From positions 68,360 through 132,359 of the forward strand of contig OZ246403.1 of assembly GCA_965230925.1 (NCBI GenBank): DNA of 64,000 nucleotides. The letters are read 5' to 3'. The position numbers and the translations under genes were made by a program. Below the pieces are notes generated by a model. It had not been told where the DNA came from, searched no databases, and was given only the letters and a program-made list of their open reading frames with translations. Below are positions 33,059 through 48,459 of this stretch, piece after piece (the first letter of the stretch is position 1; each line of letters opens with the position of its first letter). The DNA is from an uncultured Candidatus Saccharibacteria bacterium. GTDB lineage: Bacteria; Patescibacteriota; Minisyncoccia; Phycocordibacterales; JACOZG01.

Positions 33059-33131
33059 GGGCCCGTAGTTCATCTGGTAGAACGCCTCATTTGCAATGAG
33101 GAGGTAAGCGGTTCGAGTCCGCTCGGGTCCA
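33059..33131 (+). tRNA. tRNA-Ala (anticodon TGC)
   Basis: Manual cloverleaf: acceptor GGGCCCG/CGGGTCC with G3:U70, anticodon loop TTTGCAA, T-arm AGCGG-TTCGAGT-CCGCT. 73 nt, no encoded CCA. Confidence 0.8.
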
Positions 33132-33267
33132 CAATTCCTTATTTGCCAGGTTTTGGTTGGTGGGATATTCTGGGTCATGCTTCATAATCGTCAGATAAAG
33201 ACTTGGTCTAGTTTTGTTTGGAACACCTCTCCCGACCGGTAGGGTAAGGGTTGCTTTTTGTCTCTAG

Positions 33268-33296
33268 CCCCCGCCCTATCGGGCGGTTTTTGTTTG
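33268..33296 (+). terminator. Rho-independent terminator
   Basis: ccgccc tatc gggcgg followed by tttttgtttg. Confidence 0.75.
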
Positions 33297-33322
33297 TCTT
33301 TTAAAAGTTAGAACAAAAAATC

Positions 33323-34030
33323 ATGATTACTCAACCAATCAAAACCCGTGTCTTCCAGGAAGGCGAAAGCTTGCTTTCATTTATCAAGAAATATCTCAAA
33401 AAGATCCCTGAGAAATCTGTTCTCGTCGTGACTTCTAAAATTGTTGCTCTGGCAGAGAGGCGAACAGCCATTGCCGAAAATGTTCAGAGCAAAGAAAAAC
33501 TCATTCGAGCCGAGAGTGAACTCGTAATACCCACCAAATATGCCTGGCTTACCATCAAGGATGGAATGGTTATGGCTTCCGCCGGCATTGATGAATCAAA
33601 TGCGAATGGTAAATTTATTCTTTTGCCAAAAGACAGCTTCAAAACCGCCCGCCTTCTGCGCCACAAATTGCGGGGGCATTACCGGCTCAAGCATCTTGGT
33701 GTTCTCATTACCGATAGTCGGACCTTGCCGCTCCGCGCTGGCGTGGCGGGTGTGGCCACGGGGTATGCCGGCTTCCGAGGTATTAAGGATTATCGGGGCT
33801 TGCCCGACATCTTTGGGAGAAAATTTAAATTCTCTCGCACCGATGTGGCCGACAGTCTCGCTACCGCCGCCGTCTTCGTGATGGGAGAGGGAAATGAACA
33901 ACAACCTTTGGCGATTATTAAGAAAGCTCCGGTTGAATTTTGCGACAAAGTTCATCGTCAAGAATTACACATCGATATTCAAGAAGACATGTACGGACCA
34001 CTCTTTGCCAAGTTACCCAAACCTTGCTAA
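33323..34030 (+). CDS. CofE-like (F420-0:gamma-glutamyl ligase family) protein
   Basis: VLVVTSKIVALAERR and downstream GVATGYAGF blocks resemble the CofE fold. 235 aa. Confidence 0.5.
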   Translation: MITQPIKTRVFQEGESLLSFIKKYLKKIPEKSVLVVTSKIVALAERRTAIAENVQSKEKLIRAESELVIPTKYAWLTIKDGMVMASAGIDESNANGKFILLPKDSFKTARLLRHKLRGHYRLKHLGVLITDSRTLPLRAGVAGVATGYAGFRGIKDYRGLPDIFGRKFKFSRTDVADSLATAAVFVMGEGNEQQPLAIIKKAPVEFCDKVHRQELHIDIQEDMYGPLFAKLPKPC

Positions 34031-34125
34031 CCTTTTACTGAACCGTGAGCGGGCACTGCACAGGGTGTGCGGAGGCAAAAGCTCACAATTTGTTCTCCTT
34101 ATTATATTTCGTGGAGGTTGGTATA

Positions 34126-34290
34126 GTGAACACGAAGCAAGGGACTCAGGAAAAAACCCAGGAAACGAGCGTGGCCGATCGAGTGCGGACGAGAATAGCC
34201 GCGCAAGGACGACAATCTGGACAGGACACTGACGCCGCACCAAGGCTACCCGAAAAAAATCACGAGGACAGCAAAAACTCAATCACCTAA
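34126..34290 (+). CDS. Putative small hydrophilic protein of 54 aa
   Basis: GGAGG 8 nt upstream of the GTG at 34126. Terminator directly downstream. GC-rich segment. Confidence 0.3.
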   Translation: MNTKQGTQEKTQETSVADRVRTRIAAQGRQSGQDTDAAPRLPEKNHEDSKNSIT

Positions 34291-34313
34291 AACACAGAAC
34301 CACTTAGGACCCC

Positions 34314-34368
34314 GGGCCGGCTACGTTGCTATGAACAACGAGCCGGCCCAAATTTTTTGACTTTTTTC
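34314..34368 (+). terminator. Rho-independent terminator
   Basis: 9-bp stem (gggccggct / agccggccc), followed by aaattttttgacttttttc. Confidence 0.7.
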
Positions 34369-34527
34369 TTTATCCACAGTTTTGCTTTTCAACTCTTGAC
34401 GATGAAAACGAGGGGAGTAAACTGAAAGCTGGCAAGATTCATTGTTCTTTGTTGAATAGTTCCTGGGGCACGGTTGCCGAGGAAAATTTCAGAGAACATG
34501 AGTCACACTGAAAAAGGAGTCATTCGT

Positions 34528-34704
34528 ATGTTGTTTACCATTCGTAACCACATGGCCGCACATGACCGTCGACAACGTGCTTTGGCTGGTCATCTTTCGG
34601 CGAATTTCAACGTGATGAACATGATCGACGACCCTGCTGCCACCACCGCCAACAGGAAGAACACCGCCGCTCCACCTGCGACGACGACCGTTCTCCGTGT
34701 TTAG
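34528..34704 (+). CDS. Putative small protein of 58 aa
   Basis: AAAGGAG 9 nt upstream of the ATG at 34528. GC-rich segment. Confidence 0.3.
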   Translation: MLFTIRNHMAAHDRRQRALAGHLSANFNVMNMIDDPAATTANRKNTAAPPATTTVLRV

Positions 34705-34881
34705 CGCGACGAGCAGCTGACCCGGATTTAGGAACTTTCACTCCACTGCGCTGGAGTGCCCGGGACCGAAAGGTCCCAAAAACAAGAAGCCCTGTAGCCT
34801 GCATGCCAAGTAGGAGCGGGGCTTTTTCATTTTTAAATTCCATTTTCAAACGTAATTTGCTAGGATTGAGGGCGCAAATAG

Positions 34882-34955
34882 GCACCCTTAGCTCAGCTGG
34901 TTAGAGCGTACGATTCACATTCGTAAGGCCCCAGGTTCGATTCCTGGAGGGTGCA
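34882..34955 (+). tRNA. tRNA-Val (anticodon CAC)
   Basis: Acceptor GCACCCT/AGGGTGC, anticodon loop TTCACAT, T-arm CCAGG-TTCGATT-CCTGG. 74 nt. Confidence 0.8.
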
Positions 34956-34979
34956 CCCGCTTCGAGGAGCGAGGCGAGC

Positions 34980-35054
34980 CGGGGTGTGGTGTAACGGTAA
35001 CATGTCCGTCTCGGGGACGGATGACTCCGGGTTCAAATCCCGGCACCCCGACCA
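34980..35054 (+). tRNA. tRNA-Pro (anticodon CGG), with encoded CCA
   Basis: Acceptor CGGGGTG/CACCCCG, anticodon loop CTCGGGG, T-arm CCGGG-TTCAAAT-CCCGG, 3' ACCA. Confidence 0.8.
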
Positions 35055-35120
35055 AGAGTTATGATATGATGGAGGTGTTCCCAAGGTCGCTTTATTAGCG
35101 TAATACCTGAAGGAAATATT

Positions 35121-35204
35121 ATGGATACTAAATGTGAGAGTTGCGGCCACATGCACAACGCTGGTGAGAAGTGCACAGAAAGTGGTTGCAGTTGCGAAGG
35201 TTAA
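35121..35204 (+). CDS. Putative 27-aa Cys-rich mini-protein (MDTKCESCGHMHNAGEKCTESGCSCEG)
   Basis: GAAGGAAAT RBS-like sequence 4 nt upstream. CxxC...C....GC.C pattern. Confidence 0.25.
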   Translation: MDTKCESCGHMHNAGEKCTESGCSCEG

Positions 35205-35277
35205 GCTAAGTTTGCCTCATTAGAATAGAGGCCAAAATTCGCTCTGGTTTACTTCCCGAGCGGATTTTGTTTTTTTG

Positions 35278-35323
35278 TGGACCCAGCGAGAATCGGACTC
35301 GCGCCTCGGCAATGCGAATGCCG
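35278..35323 (-). other. tRNA 3'-half-like fragment (anticodon arm with CGC loop, T-arm, 3' acceptor strand) with no 5' half
   Basis: Minus-strand CGGCA-TTCGCAT-TGCCG AGGC GCGAG-TCCGATT-CTCGC TGGGTCC A. No matching GGACCCA 5' acceptor strand or D-arm upstream. Confidence 0.4.
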
Positions 35324-35377
35324 CGTAACCCGCCCGCAACGCCTGAGCGCGTAGCGATGGCGGGCGGGTACCACCTG

Positions 35378-35450
35378 TGGACCGTGCCGGAATTGCACCG
35401 GCGACCTCTCGAATGCGAATCGAGTGTTCTACTAACTGAACTAACGGCCC
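35378..35450 (-). tRNA. tRNA-Ala (anticodon CGC)
   Basis: Minus strand: acceptor GGGCCGT/ACGGTCC with G3:U70, anticodon loop TTCGCAT, T-arm GCCGG-TGCAATT-CCGGC. 73 nt. Confidence 0.8.
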
Positions 35451-40408: not shown

Positions 40409-40482
40409 TGGTGGACCTACGGGGAGTCGAACCCCGACCTGTTCCATGCCATGGAACCGTTCTACCGCTATACTATAGGCCC
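40409..40482 (-). tRNA. tRNA-Ala (anticodon GGC), with encoded CCA
   Basis: Minus strand: acceptor GGGCCTA/TAGGTCC with G3:U70, anticodon loop ATGGCAT, T-arm CGGGG-TTCGACT-CCCCG. The D-stem has one mismatch. Confidence 0.7.
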
Positions 40483-43330: not shown

Positions 43331-43358
43331 GTCGCACCTCCTTTTTTCAATTTCGAGT

Positions 43359-43402
43359 CGCTACAACAGCGACCTCTGCCCGAGAATTATACAGATTTAT
43401 GA
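43359..43402 (-). promoter_or_regulatory. Consensus sigma70 promoter on the minus strand (TTGACA, 16-nt spacer, TATAAT), repeat copy 2
   Basis: Plus-strand tgtcaa at 43397-43402 and attata at 43375-43380, with the same surrounding 44-bp sequence as copy 1. Confidence 0.65.
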
Positions 43403-43459
43403 GTTCTTGTCAAGCAAATGATTTTTTCTTAGGTTCTGCTAAACTTCTGTAAATTAGAC

Positions 43460-46117
43460 ATGAAAGGCAAGAAAAAAACCTATTTACTCGTTGAGTTCCC
43501 GTATCCATCCGGCGATGGTTTGCACGTGGGTCATGTGCGTAGTTACACGGCGATGGATATTGTGGCGCGGAAGCGGCGAATGCAGGGCGAAGAAGTAATG
43601 TACCCAATGGGTTGGGACGCTTTTGGTTTGCCCGCCGAGAATTACGCAATCAAAACTGGCATTAACCCCGCCATCACGACAAAGAAAAATATCGACACTT
43701 TCCGCCGACAGCTTAAGGCTTTGGGAATTTCTTTTGACTGGAAACGGGAGGTGAATACGACCGATCCGAATTATTACAAATGGACGCAGTGGTTATTCTT
43801 ACAATTCTTTAAACAAGGTTTGGCGTATAAATCGAAGTCAGAAATTAATTGGTGTCCAAAAGATAAAATTGGTCTCGCGAATGAGGAGGCGATTGGTGGC
43901 GTGTGTGAGCGTTGTGGGACGAAAACCGAGAAGCGCGAGAAAGAACAATGGATGCTCGCGATTACGAAGTACGCTGATCGACTTGATAAAGATCTTGATC
44001 TCGTGGATTACCCCGAGCCGGTGAAGTTGCAACAGCGCAACTGGATCGGGAAAAGTGAGGGGTGGGAAATTGATTTCGATAATATTAAAGTTTTTACCAC
44101 CCGGCCGGACACCATCTTCGGTGCGAGTTTTGTGGCTATTGCGCCGGAGTTAGCGAAAAAGTTAACGGGCAAAGATTTTGGTATTAGGGTTGATAATGAT
44201 CGGGAAAATAAGGAGAAAGTGGGTGCTGATACTGGTTTGCGGGTAAAGAATCCGGCCAGTGGCGAAGAATTGCCAGTGTGGGTCGTGAATTACGTCTCGG
44301 CCGACTACGGCACCGGCGCCATCATGGGCGTGCCTGCTCACGACGAACGTGATTTTGAATTTGCCAAGAAATACAACTTGCCAATTAAAGCCGTGGTAAT
44401 GCCAAGCCTAACTGATTACTCTAATCCACCGCGGGAAGGGAAAGAAAACACTTTCCGCAATATGGTGCTCGGTATTCTGCACAATCCAAAAACAAAAAAA
44501 TATCTGGTTCTGAAGTGGAAGAAACAGCCGTGGATCGGTTTTGTTACCGGAGGAGTTGAAGAAGGAGAAAATCATGCTGAAGCGATGAAACGTGAAATCG
44601 CTGAAGAGACTGGTTATACCAACACCAAATTGGTGAGAAGCTTAGGAATGACTGAGGCGTACTTTTTTGCCGCGCACAAAGATGTGAATCGTCGAACTCA
44701 TGGTGAACACTTCTTGTTTGAACTACTTGATGAAACCAGAAATGAAGTGAGCAAAGAAGAGCAAGAATTGTATGATTTTGAATGGCTTTCTTTCGACGAG
44801 CTCAAAGCGACGCGATTGCAACACACTGAGTCGCCAATGCTCTTAGACCGAATCGCCACGGGAAAAGATTTTTTCACCGGCTCGGGCCGAGTTTTCAACT
44901 CGGGAGAGTTCTCTGATCTCATGAGCGACGAGGCGAAAGAGGAAATCGCCAAAGAAGTAGGCGGGAAAAAGGTGACGACATATAAACTCCGCGATTGGGT
45001 GTTTAGCCGGCAGCGGTACTGGGGTGAGCCAATTCCAATGATTTATTGCAATGATTGCGGGTGGCAGCCGGTCCCGGAGAAAGATTTACCGGTCAAATTG
45101 CCGAAGATGGATAAATATCAGCCAACGGATAATGGCGAATCGCCACTCGCGAATATTAAAAAGTTCGTGGAAACAAAGTGTCCAAAGTGTAAGAGCAAAG
45201 CGCGCCGAGAAACAGACACAATGCCCAACTGGGCTGGATCTTCTTGGTATTACCTCCGGTACACTGATCCCAAAAACAAAAAAGAATTTGCGAGCAAGAA
45301 AAATCTTGAACATTGGCTGCCAGTAGACTGGTACAACGGCGGCATGGAGCATACCACACTTCACCTGCTCTATTCCCGTTTCTGGCACAAATTCCTGTTT
45401 GATCAAAAGCTTGTGCCGGGCAAAGAACCGTATGCCAAACGCACATCGCATGGTCTCATTCTCGCTTCTGATGGCGAAAAGATGAGTAAATCGCGGGGGA
45501 ATGTAATTAATCCCGATGAAATTGTGAAAATGTATGGCGCCGACGCCCTGCGGCTCTACGAAATGTTTATGGGCCCCTTCGAGCAGGCGGTCTCATGGCA
45601 GACTGAGAGTATTATTGGCGTGAAGCGCTTCTTGGAGCGAGTGGAAAAAGCGGGGAGGAAGGTGAGTAAAAAAGCTTCTGATCACCAGCTTGATATTTTA
45701 ATCAACAAAACTGTTCAGAAAGTGAGCGATGACATAGAAGCGATGCGCTTCAACACCGCCGTGAGCGCGCTGATGATTGCACTCAATGAACTGGAGAAGG
45801 CAGAGAAAATCCCAGCTAAAGTGTGGGAGACTTTCTTAACCCTACTTTCGCCCTTTGCGCCACATATCGCGACCAAACTAAAAGCAGGTAAAAAGTGGCC
45901 AATCTATGACCCGAAATTGGTGGGCGAAGAAAAAAAGAAGCTTTCTGTCCAAATTAATGGCAAGGCTCGGGGAATTCTCGAAGTCTCTGGGGCTGAAACT
46001 GAGGCGGAAATTCTTCAACTCGCTGAACAAGAAGCCAATCTCGCCAAGTGGTTCTCTGGCAAACCTCTCAAAAAAGTTGTCTACCAACCAGGAAGGTTTA
46101 TCAACCTCATTGTTTGA
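43460..46117 (+). CDS. leuS: Leucyl-tRNA synthetase carrying a Nudix-box-containing insertion (~150 aa)
   Basis: HIGH-type motif HVGHV, TTRPDT and GTGAIMGVPAHD editing-domain motifs, KMSKS. A 150-aa insert with a perfect Nudix box (GGVEEGENHAEAMKREIAEETGY) lies between the editing domain and the GRVFNSGEF block. Confidence 0.9.
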   Translation: MKGKKKTYLLVEFPYPSGDGLHVGHVRSYTAMDIVARKRRMQGEEVMYPMGWDAFGLPAENYAIKTGINPAITTKKNIDTFRRQLKALGISFDWKREVNTTDPNYYKWTQWLFLQFFKQGLAYKSKSEINWCPKDKIGLANEEAIGGVCERCGTKTEKREKEQWMLAITKYADRLDKDLDLVDYPEPVKLQQRNWIGKSEGWEIDFDNIKVFTTRPDTIFGASFVAIAPELAKKLTGKDFGIRVDNDRENKEKVGADTGLRVKNPASGEELPVWVVNYVSADYGTGAIMGVPAHDERDFEFAKKYNLPIKAVVMPSLTDYSNPPREGKENTFRNMVLGILHNPKTKKYLVLKWKKQPWIGFVTGGVEEGENHAEAMKREIAEETGYTNTKLVRSLGMTEAYFFAAHKDVNRRTHGEHFLFELLDETRNEVSKEEQELYDFEWLSFDELKATRLQHTESPMLLDRIATGKDFFTGSGRVFNSGEFSDLMSDEAKEEIAKEVGGKKVTTYKLRDWVFSRQRYWGEPIPMIYCNDCGWQPVPEKDLPVKLPKMDKYQPTDNGESPLANIKKFVETKCPKCKSKARRETDTMPNWAGSSWYYLRYTDPKNKKEFASKKNLEHWLPVDWYNGGMEHTTLHLLYSRFWHKFLFDQKLVPGKEPYAKRTSHGLILASDGEKMSKSRGNVINPDEIVKMYGADALRLYEMFMGPFEQAVSWQTESIIGVKRFLERVEKAGRKVSKKASDHQLDILINKTVQKVSDDIEAMRFNTAVSALMIALNELEKAEKIPAKVWETFLTLLSPFAPHIATKLKAGKKWPIYDPKLVGEEKKKLSVQINGKARGILEVSGAETEAEILQLAEQEANLAKWFSGKPLKKVVYQPGRFINLIV
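44410..44880 (+). other. Nudix-box-containing insertion (~150 aa) within leuS
   Basis: GX5EX7REUXEEXGU satisfied at nt 44549-44617. Canonical LeuRS has only about 25 aa at this position. Confidence 0.65.
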
Positions 46118-46170: not shown

Positions 46171-47199
46171 ATGGCCAAAATGAGCCCAAATTTTAAGCCC
46201 AAGGAGGTGGTCAAAGGCCTCTTAATTAGTCTCCCAGAACGCTCACAAGACGTGATCCGGAAGCGCTATGGTTTGGACGCTGAGGAAGGTATGACGCTCG
46301 AAGCAATCGGGCAGATTTACGGTATTACTCGTGAGCGCGTACGCCAGATTGAGGAAGCCACGCTCAAGATGATCAAGAAGTCTGAGCACTTTGCCCGTCT
46401 TGCGGCTGAACTTGAGGAACTTAAGTCGGCGCTTGAGGATTACGGTGGTATTGCCCATGAAGGTGAATTCCTCCGCCATCTCCACGACCATCCTACGACC
46501 CAAAACCAAGTGAACTTCCTCTTGGTACTTGGTGACGACTTCGTTCGCCTTAAGGAAGACGACGATTTCCATCATCGCTGGACGGTCAATAAAGGATTGG
46601 CCGACCGCGTGCATGTGGCGCTTAATAAACTCGCCAAAGAACTCGGCGAAGACGATTTGCTTTCCGAAAAAGATATTGTTTCTAAGCTCTTGGCCAAACT
46701 TGATGGCGACACCAAGGATGATCTCTTCCGTGAACGTGGTCGCCGCTGGCTCGCTATTTCTAAGAAAATTGGCGCTAACCCTGTAGGTGAATGGGGCCTC
46801 GCTGTTTCCCCTAATGTCCGCCTCCGCGGTATCCGTGATTACGCCTTCCTCGTACTCCGACGCCATGGCTCGCCGCTCCACTTTACCGAAGTGGCCAAGG
46901 CTATTGAATCTTCTTTCAAACACCGCGCCAATGCCGCCACTTGCCACAACGAACTCATTAAAGATGACCGTTTTGTTCTCGTGGGTCGCGGTCTCTACGC
47001 ACTTACTGAGTGGGGTTACACCCGCGGTGTCGTTCGTGACGTTATTCGCGCCCTCATTGAGAAGCATGGCCCAATGACCGAGAAAGAAATTATTGACCGC
47101 GTGATGAAGGAGCGCTATGTGAAGGAAAACACCATTCTCGTTAATCTCCGCAATAGCAAAAACTTTAAGAAAAACAGTTCCGGCAAATACACAGTCTAA
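46171..47199 (+). CDS. Putative DNA-binding protein with an N-terminal sigma70-region-4-like HTH and a C-terminal HARE-HTH-like winged helix
   Basis: Residues about 17-66, LPERSQDVIRKRYGLD...MTLEAIGQIYGITRERVRQIEEATLKMIKK, match the sigma-70 r4 signature. The C-terminus FTEVAKAIE...DDRFVLVGRGLYALTEWGY resembles HARE-HTH. Confidence 0.5.
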   Translation: MAKMSPNFKPKEVVKGLLISLPERSQDVIRKRYGLDAEEGMTLEAIGQIYGITRERVRQIEEATLKMIKKSEHFARLAAELEELKSALEDYGGIAHEGEFLRHLHDHPTTQNQVNFLLVLGDDFVRLKEDDDFHHRWTVNKGLADRVHVALNKLAKELGEDDLLSEKDIVSKLLAKLDGDTKDDLFRERGRRWLAISKKIGANPVGEWGLAVSPNVRLRGIRDYAFLVLRRHGSPLHFTEVAKAIESSFKHRANAATCHNELIKDDRFVLVGRGLYALTEWGYTRGVVRDVIRALIEKHGPMTEKEIIDRVMKERYVKENTILVNLRNSKNFKKNSSGKYTV

Positions 47200-47238
47200 C
47201 TGGTAGCCCCCAAGCACCCCATCCGTTATAATGGAGGG

Positions 47239-48459
47239 GTGTTTTTGGTTCAAGTGTTGCAACTAACTCTCGAAACCCTCGTCAACGGATTTTTCCAGAC
47301 GAGTGTGATCTGGCTTCCGTTTGGTCTTGGCGGTATCACCTGGACTCTCTGGTACCGCTACAAGCAAGCGCAATACATTAATGCCACCGCTTGGGTATTG
47401 TTAGAAATTAAAATTCCGAAAATCATTGATAAATCACCGCAAGCGATGGAGATGGTGATGGGAATTTTTCATCAGACTTGGCAGGGGAATTGGCTGAATC
47501 GCTTCACCCAAGGTATTGTCCGCGGCTGGTTCTCTTTAGAACTGGTGTCGTTTGGTGGTGAACTTCATTTTTATATCCGAGCACCAAAATTCTTCCGTAG
47601 CATTGTGGAAGCGCAAATTTATTCGCAATATCCTGAGGTTGAGATTTACCAAGCAGATGATTACGTAACCAAGGTAGACCTAAACTCGCCAGGAAGCGCT
47701 CTCGATATTTGGGGTGGGGAGTGGCAGTTGAGCAAAGATGATCCTTATCCGATAAAAACCTATCTCGATTACAAGCTCGATGAGAATCCCGATGAGGAAT
47801 TCAAAATTGATCCGATTACGCCTCTGATTGAGTTCTTTGGTTCCATTAAGCCCACCGAGCAACTCTGGATGCAGGTCTTGATCCAAGCTACCAAGGATCG
47901 CTATCCGGATCCAAAAACCTGGTTTGGCAAAAGAGATTGGAAGGCAGAAGGAAAAGACTTGATTGAGAAGCTGATGAAGCGTGATAAGCAACCTAAACCC
48001 GATGAACCGCTGCGCTTAGAAATTCTCTCACCGGGCGAGCGCGAGGCCGTGGCCGCCGTGGAGCGCAGTATCTCCAAGCTCGGCTTCGACTGCGGTATGC
48101 GCACCATTTATCTTGGACCTAAAGACAAATTTGATCCCGTGAAGCCGGTGGGTCTCCGCGGATGTATGCGCCAATTTAGCTCGCAGCACTTAAATGGTTT
48201 CAAGGTGAAAAAAGACACGACCGTGGACTTCCCGTGGCAAGACTTCCGTGGCATCCGGGTAGCGTATAAGAAGAAAAAAATGTTTAAAGCCTATGCCTTG
48301 CGCGGTTGGTTCTACGAGCCCTTCAAGCGCAAACCTTTCGTGCTGAACACTGAGGAGCTTGCTACCATTTACCACTTCCCTGGCGCGGTGGCGCGCACGC
48401 CGACCCTCGAGAAAATCGAGTCGAAGAAGGGCGAGGCGCCAATCAATTTACCTTTATAA
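47239..48459 (+). CDS. Hypothetical membrane-anchored protein of 406 aa (start uncertain)
   Basis: N-terminal hydrophobic segment (VIWLPFGLGGITWTLWY). No recognised domain. Confidence 0.45.
   Translation: MFLVQVLQLTLETLVNGFFQTSVIWLPFGLGGITWTLWYRYKQAQYINATAWVLLEIKIPKIIDKSPQAMEMVMGIFHQTWQGNWLNRFTQGIVRGWFSLELVSFGGELHFYIRAPKFFRSIVEAQIYSQYPEVEIYQADDYVTKVDLNSPGSALDIWGGEWQLSKDDPYPIKTYLDYKLDENPDEEFKIDPITPLIEFFGSIKPTEQLWMQVLIQATKDRYPDPKTWFGKRDWKAEGKDLIEKLMKRDKQPKPDEPLRLEILSPGEREAVAAVERSISKLGFDCGMRTIYLGPKDKFDPVKPVGLRGCMRQFSSQHLNGFKVKKDTTVDFPWQDFRGIRVAYKKKKMFKAYALRGWFYEPFKRKPFVLNTEELATIYHFPGAVARTPTLEKIESKKGEAPINLPL

Follow-up and report, generated by a model that had tools for sequence, protein, structure and literature searches.

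The window analysed here, a 64,000-nucleotide stretch of contig OZ246403.1 (assembly GCA_965230925.1), encodes on its forward strand a leucyl-tRNA synthetase (LeuRS) that carries a predicted Nudix hydrolase domain nested within its editing domain, CP1 (Table 1). The 885-residue protein scored 892.2 bits against the bacterial LeuRS model TIGR00396 (leuS_bact; cutoff 548.4 bits), and the solved LeuRS of Thermus thermophilus, Escherichia coli and Neisseria gonorrhoeae matched it end to end (E = 1e-184 to 1e-163). A full-length AlphaFold2 model reached a predicted local distance difference test score (pLDDT) of 88.6 and a predicted template modelling score of 0.75, and its LeuRS body superposed on solved LeuRS structures at template modelling (TM) scores of 0.70–0.78. 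Across 83 homologs, H22, G24 and H25 of the HIGH signature and K674, S676, K677 and S678 of the KMSKS signature are invariant, and the TTRPDT and GTGAIMGVPAHD editing motifs are at least 95% conserved across 120 homologs; G476 and S481 of the GRVFNSGEF segment are nearly invariant in the homolog alignment. An original prediction, made by a model from the sequence alone, had named an intact LeuRS frame with its motifs, and we found HVGH, TTRPDT, GTGAIMGVPAHD, GRVFNSGEF and KMSKS all present in one uninterrupted frame. These computations show the protein to be the organism's bacterial-type LeuRS, with intact synthetic (HIGH and KMSKS) and post-transfer editing (T-rich motif and AHD aspartate) sites. 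Because the proteins that bear the Nudix domain show little or no variation in the motifs of either site, the host is most likely the working LeuRS.

Table 1 Features of the LeuRS gene and of the Nudix domain nested in it. Positions count from the first nucleotide of the window, residues from the first residue of the protein.
Feature	Window position	Strand	Residues (aa)	Remarks
Complete LeuRS gene hosting the Nudix domain	43460..46117	+	885 + stop	Single open reading frame (ORF), no internal stop
HIGH signature (HVGH) of the synthetic site	43523..43534	+	22-25	
Larger, N-terminal portion of CP1 (editing domain)	44036..44416	+	193-319	PF13603
TTRPDT editing motif	44096-44113	+	213-218	
GTGAIMGVPAHD editing motif	44309-44344	+	284-295	Ends in AHD; Asp = aa 295
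Insert	44402..44881	+	315-474	N-linker, Nudix domain, C-terminal helix, linker; bounds from the 1h3n alignment
Subfamily-specific residues outside the box	44453..44788	+	R333, W353, K354, W358, F402, F403, K407, N410, R411, E434, W442	
Nudix hydrolase domain core	44462..44839	+	335-460	PF00293
Nudix box GGVEEGENHAEAMKREIAEETGY	44549..44617	+	364-386	Exact GX5EX7REUXEEXGU
Catalytic/metal-binding residues (predicted)	within box		E379, E382, E383, plus E370, R378	
CP1 C-terminal remainder and return strand to the catalytic body	44882..44989	+	475-510	Starts SGRVFNSGEF; alignment resumes at T. thermophilus residue 380
GRVFNSGEF segment			476-484	
KMSKS signature	45479..45493	+	674-678	

The insert interrupts CP1 itself. 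Alignment to T. thermophilus (Tth) LeuRS (1h3n) stopped at residue 314 (Tth 363) and restarted at residue 475 (Tth 380), with about 160 residues standing in place of the 16-residue Tth loop 364–379. The Pfam editing-domain model (E = 1.5e-47) matched over profile positions 1–146 of 185 only, and the insert lies some 20 residues past the editing-site aspartate of the AHD motif. Because this model is interrupted at position 146 and because Tth 380–417, on the domain limits of the Tth structure papers, still belong to CP1, the alignments place the Nudix insert within the editing domain, in a surface loop, rather than appended behind it. The original prediction had the insert at 44410–44880 (residues 318–474) and before GRVFNSGEF, both of which stand, but its placement after the editing domain does not; its size estimate of about 150 residues against about 25 in canonical enzymes becomes, in the 1h3n alignment, about 160 against 16.

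Profile and structure searches both pointed to a whole Nudix domain rather than an isolated motif. Pfam NUDIX (PF00293) matched the full-length protein over profile positions 5–130 of 134 (E = 4e-17, 62.8 bits; gathering threshold 21.1 bits), and the excised insert gave 66.6 bits (E = 3e-18). The predicted structure shows a confident Nudix alpha/beta/alpha sandwich fold, with the box on a loop-helix-loop, both for the excised insert and within the full-length LeuRS, where pLDDT was 92–96 across the insert and both its linkers. The box GGVEEGENHAEAMKREIAEETGY, read as a textbook Nudix box in the original prediction, fits the consensus exactly, and no other turned up when the window was translated in all six frames. 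An intein or mobile-element identity for the insert was considered and rejected; it has the full Nudix fold and no Hint or endonuclease features.

Conservation follows the expected chemistry of the box and extends beyond it. Every one of 204 near-complete copies of the domain has G364, G365, E379, E383 and G385 (100%); E382 is kept in 94% of them and E370 and R378 in 84% each. Outside the box, the residues retained are R333 (98%), K407 (99%), N410 (94%), R411 (97%), E434 (91%) and W442 (99%), and phenylalanine or tyrosine occupies position 402, 16 residues past the box, in 99% of copies and position 403 (+17) in 93%, both being phenylalanine in the window. We propose that these subfamily-specific residues line the substrate pocket. 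Mean identity to the window copy is 46% for the Nudix domain and 43% for the LeuRS C-terminal domain, against 64% for CP1 and 72–75% for the catalytic halves. Because the scaffold diverges while catalytic and putative pocket residues stay fixed, we read the domain as a functional enzyme, and we are highly confident that it is a genuine, selected and catalytically competent nested Nudix. Having kept all canonical metal-binding and catalytic residues together with a conserved set of its own, it most likely hydrolyses a nucleoside-polyphosphate compound in a Mg2+/Mn2+-dependent reaction.

The strict catalytic box occurs in the window copy and in 236 of 273 copies at the post-CP1 position. A degenerate minority has instead a paralogous 'Q-type' box (GG.E.GQT.E.AA.[AM]E..[EQ]ETGY), in which E370 is replaced by Q and R378 by A or M; this form accounts for some 10% of the copies at the post-CP1 position, around half of those before CP1 and roughly one third of those that stand alone. 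Carriers include the proteins that we label P0023 (aa 253-395), P0055, P0082, P0095, P0096, P0102 and P0144, among others, and in some LeuRS (for example, P0055 and P0095) the Q-type copy is the only one. Copies that lack R378 and the first glutamate speak for a non-catalytic module, which would sense a nucleotide by binding it, or serve as a structural element or in positioning tRNA, and so modulate CP1 movement and keep its box for ligand binding, and catalytically inactive Nudix proteins that bind diadenosine tetraphosphate (Ap4A), such as CFIm25, provide a precedent (PMC7705103). We consider such a module distinctly improbable given the prevalence of the strict box and the retention of E379, E382 and E383 across copies; the Q-type box also keeps the glutamates of REUXEE and may be active too.

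The LeuRS-Nudix architecture is a lineage-wide trait and not a peculiarity of this genome. We collected the 120 best full-length homologs from a collection of 5.8 billion proteins (47–100% identity), and PF00293 was present in every one, with a strict Nudix box in 108; among the names of their sources are Parcubacteria, Uhrbacteria, Nomurabacteria, Paceibacter, Minisyncoccota and 'Patescibacteria group'. At least 538 genomes in a scan of Genome Taxonomy Database (GTDB) species representatives encode a relative, and at all 80 loci retrieved from these the match sits within a LeuRS ORF; the survey of Candidate Phyla Radiation orthologs suggested with the original prediction was strongly positive. 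Searching 1.84 billion representative proteins exhaustively with HMMER (E ≤ 1e-3) gave only 727 relatives, a small subfamily; the best 150 of these are mostly LeuRS or LeuRS fragments, the others including stand-alone proteins of about 160 residues. Metagenome-assembled genomes (MAGs) labelled 'uncultured Gammaproteobacteria' or 'Candidatus Saccharibacteria' (TPA_asm) also carry the Patescibacteria-type LeuRS-Nudix (our loci L011, L024, L033, L039, L040, L042, L044, L055 and many others). These third-party organism labels look like placeholders or mis-assignments, and our lineage statements rest only on specifically named Patescibacteria lineages.

This breadth bears on whether the fusion could be an artefact, whether an assembly chimera, a frameshift joining a separate Nudix gene or a chance motif. 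Nothing in the window supports an artefact, although one of our database matches shows that such errors occur elsewhere: P0001, a 187-residue protein from JGI, runs from the end of CP1 through the first ~45 residues of the same Nudix insert and, after GGVED, continues into unrelated Gly/Ala/Arg-rich sequence, and is probably the product of a chimeric or frameshifted contig. In the window, by contrast, the frame is continuous with LeuRS sequence on either side of the insert, and an independent Logan assembly (SRR12822861) encodes the identical 885-residue protein with the same neighbours. Added to the Pfam match over the whole domain and to an architecture conserved in all 120 nearest homologs, all 80 retrieved loci and hundreds of species, this makes the probability of an artefact negligible, and a separate Nudix gene, named at the outset as a possible refutation, is not what the window contains. 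A word-indexed search with the insert alone returned P0001 as its sole match, which reflects the sensitivity limit of the index and not rarity. GC content is about 0.42 over the Nudix-coding part (window 44350-44800) against 0.47–0.52 in the flanking LeuRS sequence; we treated this mild dip as compositional noise or differing amino-acid usage, and composition does not indicate a recent acquisition.

Placement within LeuRS varies, with 273 copies at the post-CP1 position, 39 before CP1 and 2 in the second catalytic half, and at most three copies per protein. Two or three Nudix domains occur in P0122, P0123, P0108, P0127, P0129, P0135, P0138, P0137 and P0158 and at loci L068, L070, L071 and L051, and the layouts comprise two domains before CP1 plus one after, tandem copies after CP1, and one copy within the second half of the catalytic domain. 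Locus L068, from Candidatus Taylorbacteria, has three, and in 6 of 80 species loci the domain lies solely before CP1. A neighbour-joining tree of 144 Nudix copies interleaved pre-CP1, post-CP1 and stand-alone copies and is too noisy for counting insertion events. The repeated duplication or relocation of the domain within LeuRS argues for a lasting association with its host.

Family comparisons gave consistent but weak leads to the substrate. No curated Nudix family in NCBIfam claims the domain above its cutoff: the best score against the RppH/NudH equivalogs (PRK00714) was 34.9 bits (cutoff 118), and the NudB dihydroneopterin-triphosphate diphosphatase model (NF006961) gave 31.9–32 bits (cutoff 103), with weak matches recurring across members for both RppH/NudH models (32–33 of 34) and NudB (33 of 34). 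The best profile matches in the PDB were AvrM14 (E = 4e-8, with the K..NR motif also aligned), lupin Ap4A hydrolase, NudB and Dcp2. Among characterised enzymes, the best structural neighbours were the Ap6A hydrolase Ndx1, the diadenosine polyphosphatase Rv2985/MutT1, the Aquifex Ap4A hydrolase, RppH and NudI, and structural matches also included RppH-RNA complexes and oomycete decapping effectors. NudB and NudI score equal to the diadenosine polyphosphate (Ap_nA) hydrolases in these profile and structure comparisons. From profiles and models, the domain forms a distinct subfamily in the group of small monomeric Nudix enzymes that act on nucleoside triphosphates (NTPs), dinucleoside polyphosphates (Np_nN) or RNA 5' ends. 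Ap_nA hydrolases reportedly carry a signature tyrosine 16–18 positions past the Nudix box (Dunn and colleagues, 1999), a lead rather than a curated test, with which the aromatics at +16 and +17 agree. Among the substrates suggested in the original prediction, dinucleoside polyphosphates of the Ap4A type would fit these weak resemblances best.

Like RppH/NudH/YgdP and the Ap_nA hydrolases (Aquifex 3i7u, T. thermophilus Ndx1 1vc8, mycobacterial MutT1/Rv2985 and lupin 1f3y), the domain has a small monomeric Nudix fold, a perfect box and aromatics 16–17 residues past it, and these enzymes are its best structural and profile neighbours among those characterised; R333 on the first strand compares with the arginine of YR.NVG in that group. 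The domain is nevertheless distant from them in sequence (only 15–27% identity, with scores near 35 bits where the curated cutoffs begin at 103), has a signature of its own (W353-K354, W358, K407-x2-N410-R411, E434 and W442), and is acidic and nested in another enzyme rather than free-standing. AvrM14 is reported to decap mRNA in vitro (McCombe and colleagues, 2023). The flax rust effectors AvrM14-A and AvrM14-B (8dp8 and 8dp9; structures in PMC12018790) share some 20–23% identity with the window domain and are eukaryotic and secreted, with no relation to a synthetase.

RppH is both an Ap_nA hydrolase and an Np4-decapping enzyme (PMC7705103; PMC7044304). This dual activity lends some weight to an RppH/Dcp2-like RNA 5'-end enzyme, which would strip pyrophosphate or a cap (Np4 or NAD) from RNA held by LeuRS, such as tRNA-Leu or its precursor. 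The steadiest curated resemblance is indeed to the RNA pyrophosphohydrolase models, the structural matches take in RppH-RNA complexes, AvrM14, oomycete decapping effectors and Dcp2, and the insert lies in CP1, the domain that binds the tRNA acceptor end, which the RNA 5' end adjoins. The domain is nevertheless acidic (median isoelectric point (pI) 5.9 and net charge −3; pI 5.9 and charge −4 for the window copy, as a crude proxy for its surface), whereas RppH is basic, and by this proxy the basic RNA-binding surface of RppH is lacking here. Because of this mild acidity, a small-molecule substrate is favoured over RNA. All scores also lie far under the RppH cutoffs, stand-alone and peptidase-nested copies have no RNA-binding host, and mature tRNA has a 5' monophosphate and so offers nothing there for a Nudix enzyme to cut. 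We regard an RNA 5'-end function as unlikely.

Ap_nN is made by aminoacyl-tRNA synthetases (aaRSs) from the aminoacyl-adenylate, and the Nudix enzymes that hydrolyse Ap4A include RppH/NudH and MutT1 (PMC7705103). In the mechanism that we prefer, the substrates would be dinucleoside polyphosphates (Ap4A, Ap4N and relatives) arising as side products of the synthetase when its aminoacyl-adenylate reacts with ATP or another NTP. Glu379, Glu382 and Glu383 would activate water for an asymmetric cleavage that yields AMP and an NTP. One polypeptide would then hold three active sites, for synthesis, editing and by-product or alarmone removal, and tethering would fix the hydrolase 1:1 with the synthetase and perhaps allow local clearance. 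This combined proposal, of an Ap_nN substrate and of a function coupled to LeuRS, is plausible but tentative. That the nested Nudix is coupled to the synthetase, either by destroying adenylylated by-products or alarmones (Ap4A/Ap4N and possibly Np4 caps) or by being gated by CP1 movement during the aminoacylation and editing cycle, we consider somewhat less likely than not.

The original prediction had also offered Leu-AMP or misactivated aminoacyl-adenylates as substrates, which would make the domain a built-in device for pre-transfer editing; the one point in favour is its nearness to the editing domain. The bond that Nudix enzymes break in nucleoside diphosphate-X compounds is a pyrophosphate linkage, and an aminoacyl-adenylate is an acyl-phosphate. 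Leu-AMP would be an improbable Nudix substrate because it contains no pyrophosphate bond, and the aminoacyl-adenylate hydrolases known to us belong to the HIT family and not to Nudix. The canonical CP1 editing site is, moreover, fully conserved and needs no replacement. We give this alternative very little credence.

Several observations weigh against a by-product hydrolase coupled to LeuRS. The resemblances to characterised Nudix families are all weak (about 35 bits against curated cutoffs of 103–118), a minority of copies has the degenerate Q-type box, and LeuRS is not known to rank with the strongest producers of Ap4A, which leaves a LeuRS-specific link unexplained. The Nudix domain also exists without LeuRS, in the stand-alone relatives of about 160 residues, whose neighbours are unrelated to LeuRS (P0144, for example, adjoins another Nudix gene and has nothing LeuRS- or RNA-related in its neighbourhood), and in P0249, a second housekeeping enzyme with nested small enzymes, whose 1318 residues combine an M17 (leucyl) aminopeptidase catalytic domain with two GNAT acetyltransferase and two same-subfamily Nudix domains. 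Sister LeuRS, finally, host other guests: a serine alpha/beta-hydrolase before CP1 (P0029, aa 246-415; P0053, aa 441-598) or in the Zn-2 region (P0023, aa 750-905), a HAD phosphatase (P0110, aa 654-808) and a DUF559 Vsr-like endonuclease domain (P0028, aa 270-372).

These same guests and hosts suggest that the domain may be a passenger in a permissive loop, a housekeeping nucleotide pyrophosphatase (for example, an NTP/dNTP enzyme of NudB/NudI type) tolerated by LeuRS, with a chemistry unrelated to leucylation or editing and with co-expression and genome compaction as the gain. Alpha/beta-hydrolase, HAD and DUF559 domains occupy several sites in sister LeuRS, the same Nudix subfamily is nested with GNAT in the M17 aminopeptidase, stand-alone relatives lie beside genes unrelated to LeuRS, NudB and NudI match the domain as well as the Ap_nA hydrolases do, and the Nudix domain evolves faster than the LeuRS core. 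A further precedent for a small enzyme inside a class Ia aaRS is the isoleucyl-tRNA synthetase (IleRS) with an N-acetyltransferase domain, for which NCBIfam holds an 'exception' model (NF040702, ileS_w_GNAT); there the host is IleRS and the guest GNAT, whereas here they are LeuRS and Nudix, a combination for which NCBIfam has no equivalent curated model. Against a passenger, however, the great majority of this small subfamily resides in LeuRS, the domain has been kept across at least 538 species, its re-insertion and duplication at several LeuRS sites are hard to explain without a host-linked benefit, and the high confidence with which both linkers are modelled as ordered suggests a fixed, co-evolved placement. 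We accordingly see the passenger, the chief rival to our preferred mechanism, as a possibility that falls short of being probable.

In its remaining architecture, the window LeuRS follows canonical enzymes (T. thermophilus 1h3n/2byt, E. coli 4aq7 and N. gonorrhoeae 6q89), with the same catalytic motifs, 32–35% identity and the TM scores given above. As in those enzymes, CP1 is inserted in the Rossmann fold, and Zn-binding modules, an anticodon-binding domain and a C-terminal domain are present. It differs in the 160-residue Nudix domain that replaces the CP1 loop Tth 364–379; profile and structure searches of the PDB with the domain returned no LeuRS chain, and no solved LeuRS has it. It differs from T. 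thermophilus LeuRS also in having no counterpart in the alignment for Tth residues ~594–636 (window ~45480-45510, aa 674-683), beside KMSKS, a stretch that corresponds to the leucine-specific domain, of which the window protein thus seems to have little or nothing. Its N-terminus is shorter than in 118 of 120 of its own relatives. In the region concerned (window 43331-43520), the protein starts at MKGKKKTYLLVEFPYPSG and has no equivalent of the 20–50-residue N-terminal segment (consensus ...YDHKKIEKKWQKxW...) found in those 118 homologs. A frameshifted upstream segment was considered as the cause and rejected, as there are stop codons in frame upstream and just 130 nucleotides of divergent intergenic sequence; judged from the sequence, the truncation looks genuine.

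The surrounding window holds five tRNA genes, four at 33059-35450 on both strands and one at 40412-40482. Downstream of leuS lies a gene for a 342-residue sigma-70 region 4 / HARE-HTH protein (46171..47199), which a 339-residue ORF on the opposite strand (46243..47262) overlaps almost fully; this ORF is probably spurious.

In the full-text literature that we searched, which was thin on subscription journals, no paper described a Nudix domain in LeuRS or another aaRS, and in papers that contain both terms the co-occurrence is incidental (a reference list, an unrelated section or a table). Public databases hold the Pfam matches in precomputed form, and NCBI names the proteins 'class I tRNA ligase family protein' or 'leucine--tRNA ligase'. 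LeuRS and Nudix are each known families; the nesting of one in the other, how widely it occurs and its multi-copy variants appear to be undescribed. To our knowledge, aaRSs are among the most conserved enzymes, and it is rare, above all in bacteria, for one to contain an additional catalytic domain.

A complete second enzyme would sit within the proofreading domain of an essential synthetase in hundreds of species from a major bacterial radiation, for the most part uncultivated, with minimal genomes. If the domain removes compounds of the Ap4A type, it would link alarmone synthesis and destruction on a single polypeptide and offer a tractable in-vitro system for the debate over whether synthetase-made Ap4A is signal or waste. 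If coupling to the synthetase is true, this would be the first aaRS with a built-in alarmone or by-product hydrolase, and the multi-copy, alpha/beta-hydrolase and HAD variants would be elaborations of a lineage-specific 'hydrolase platform' on CP1. If the domain is instead a passenger, it would join the alpha/beta-hydrolase, HAD, DUF559 and GNAT cases as an instance of a general strategy of nesting small enzymes in large housekeeping proteins, and such nesting matters for annotation and for estimates of the metabolic capacity of reduced genomes.

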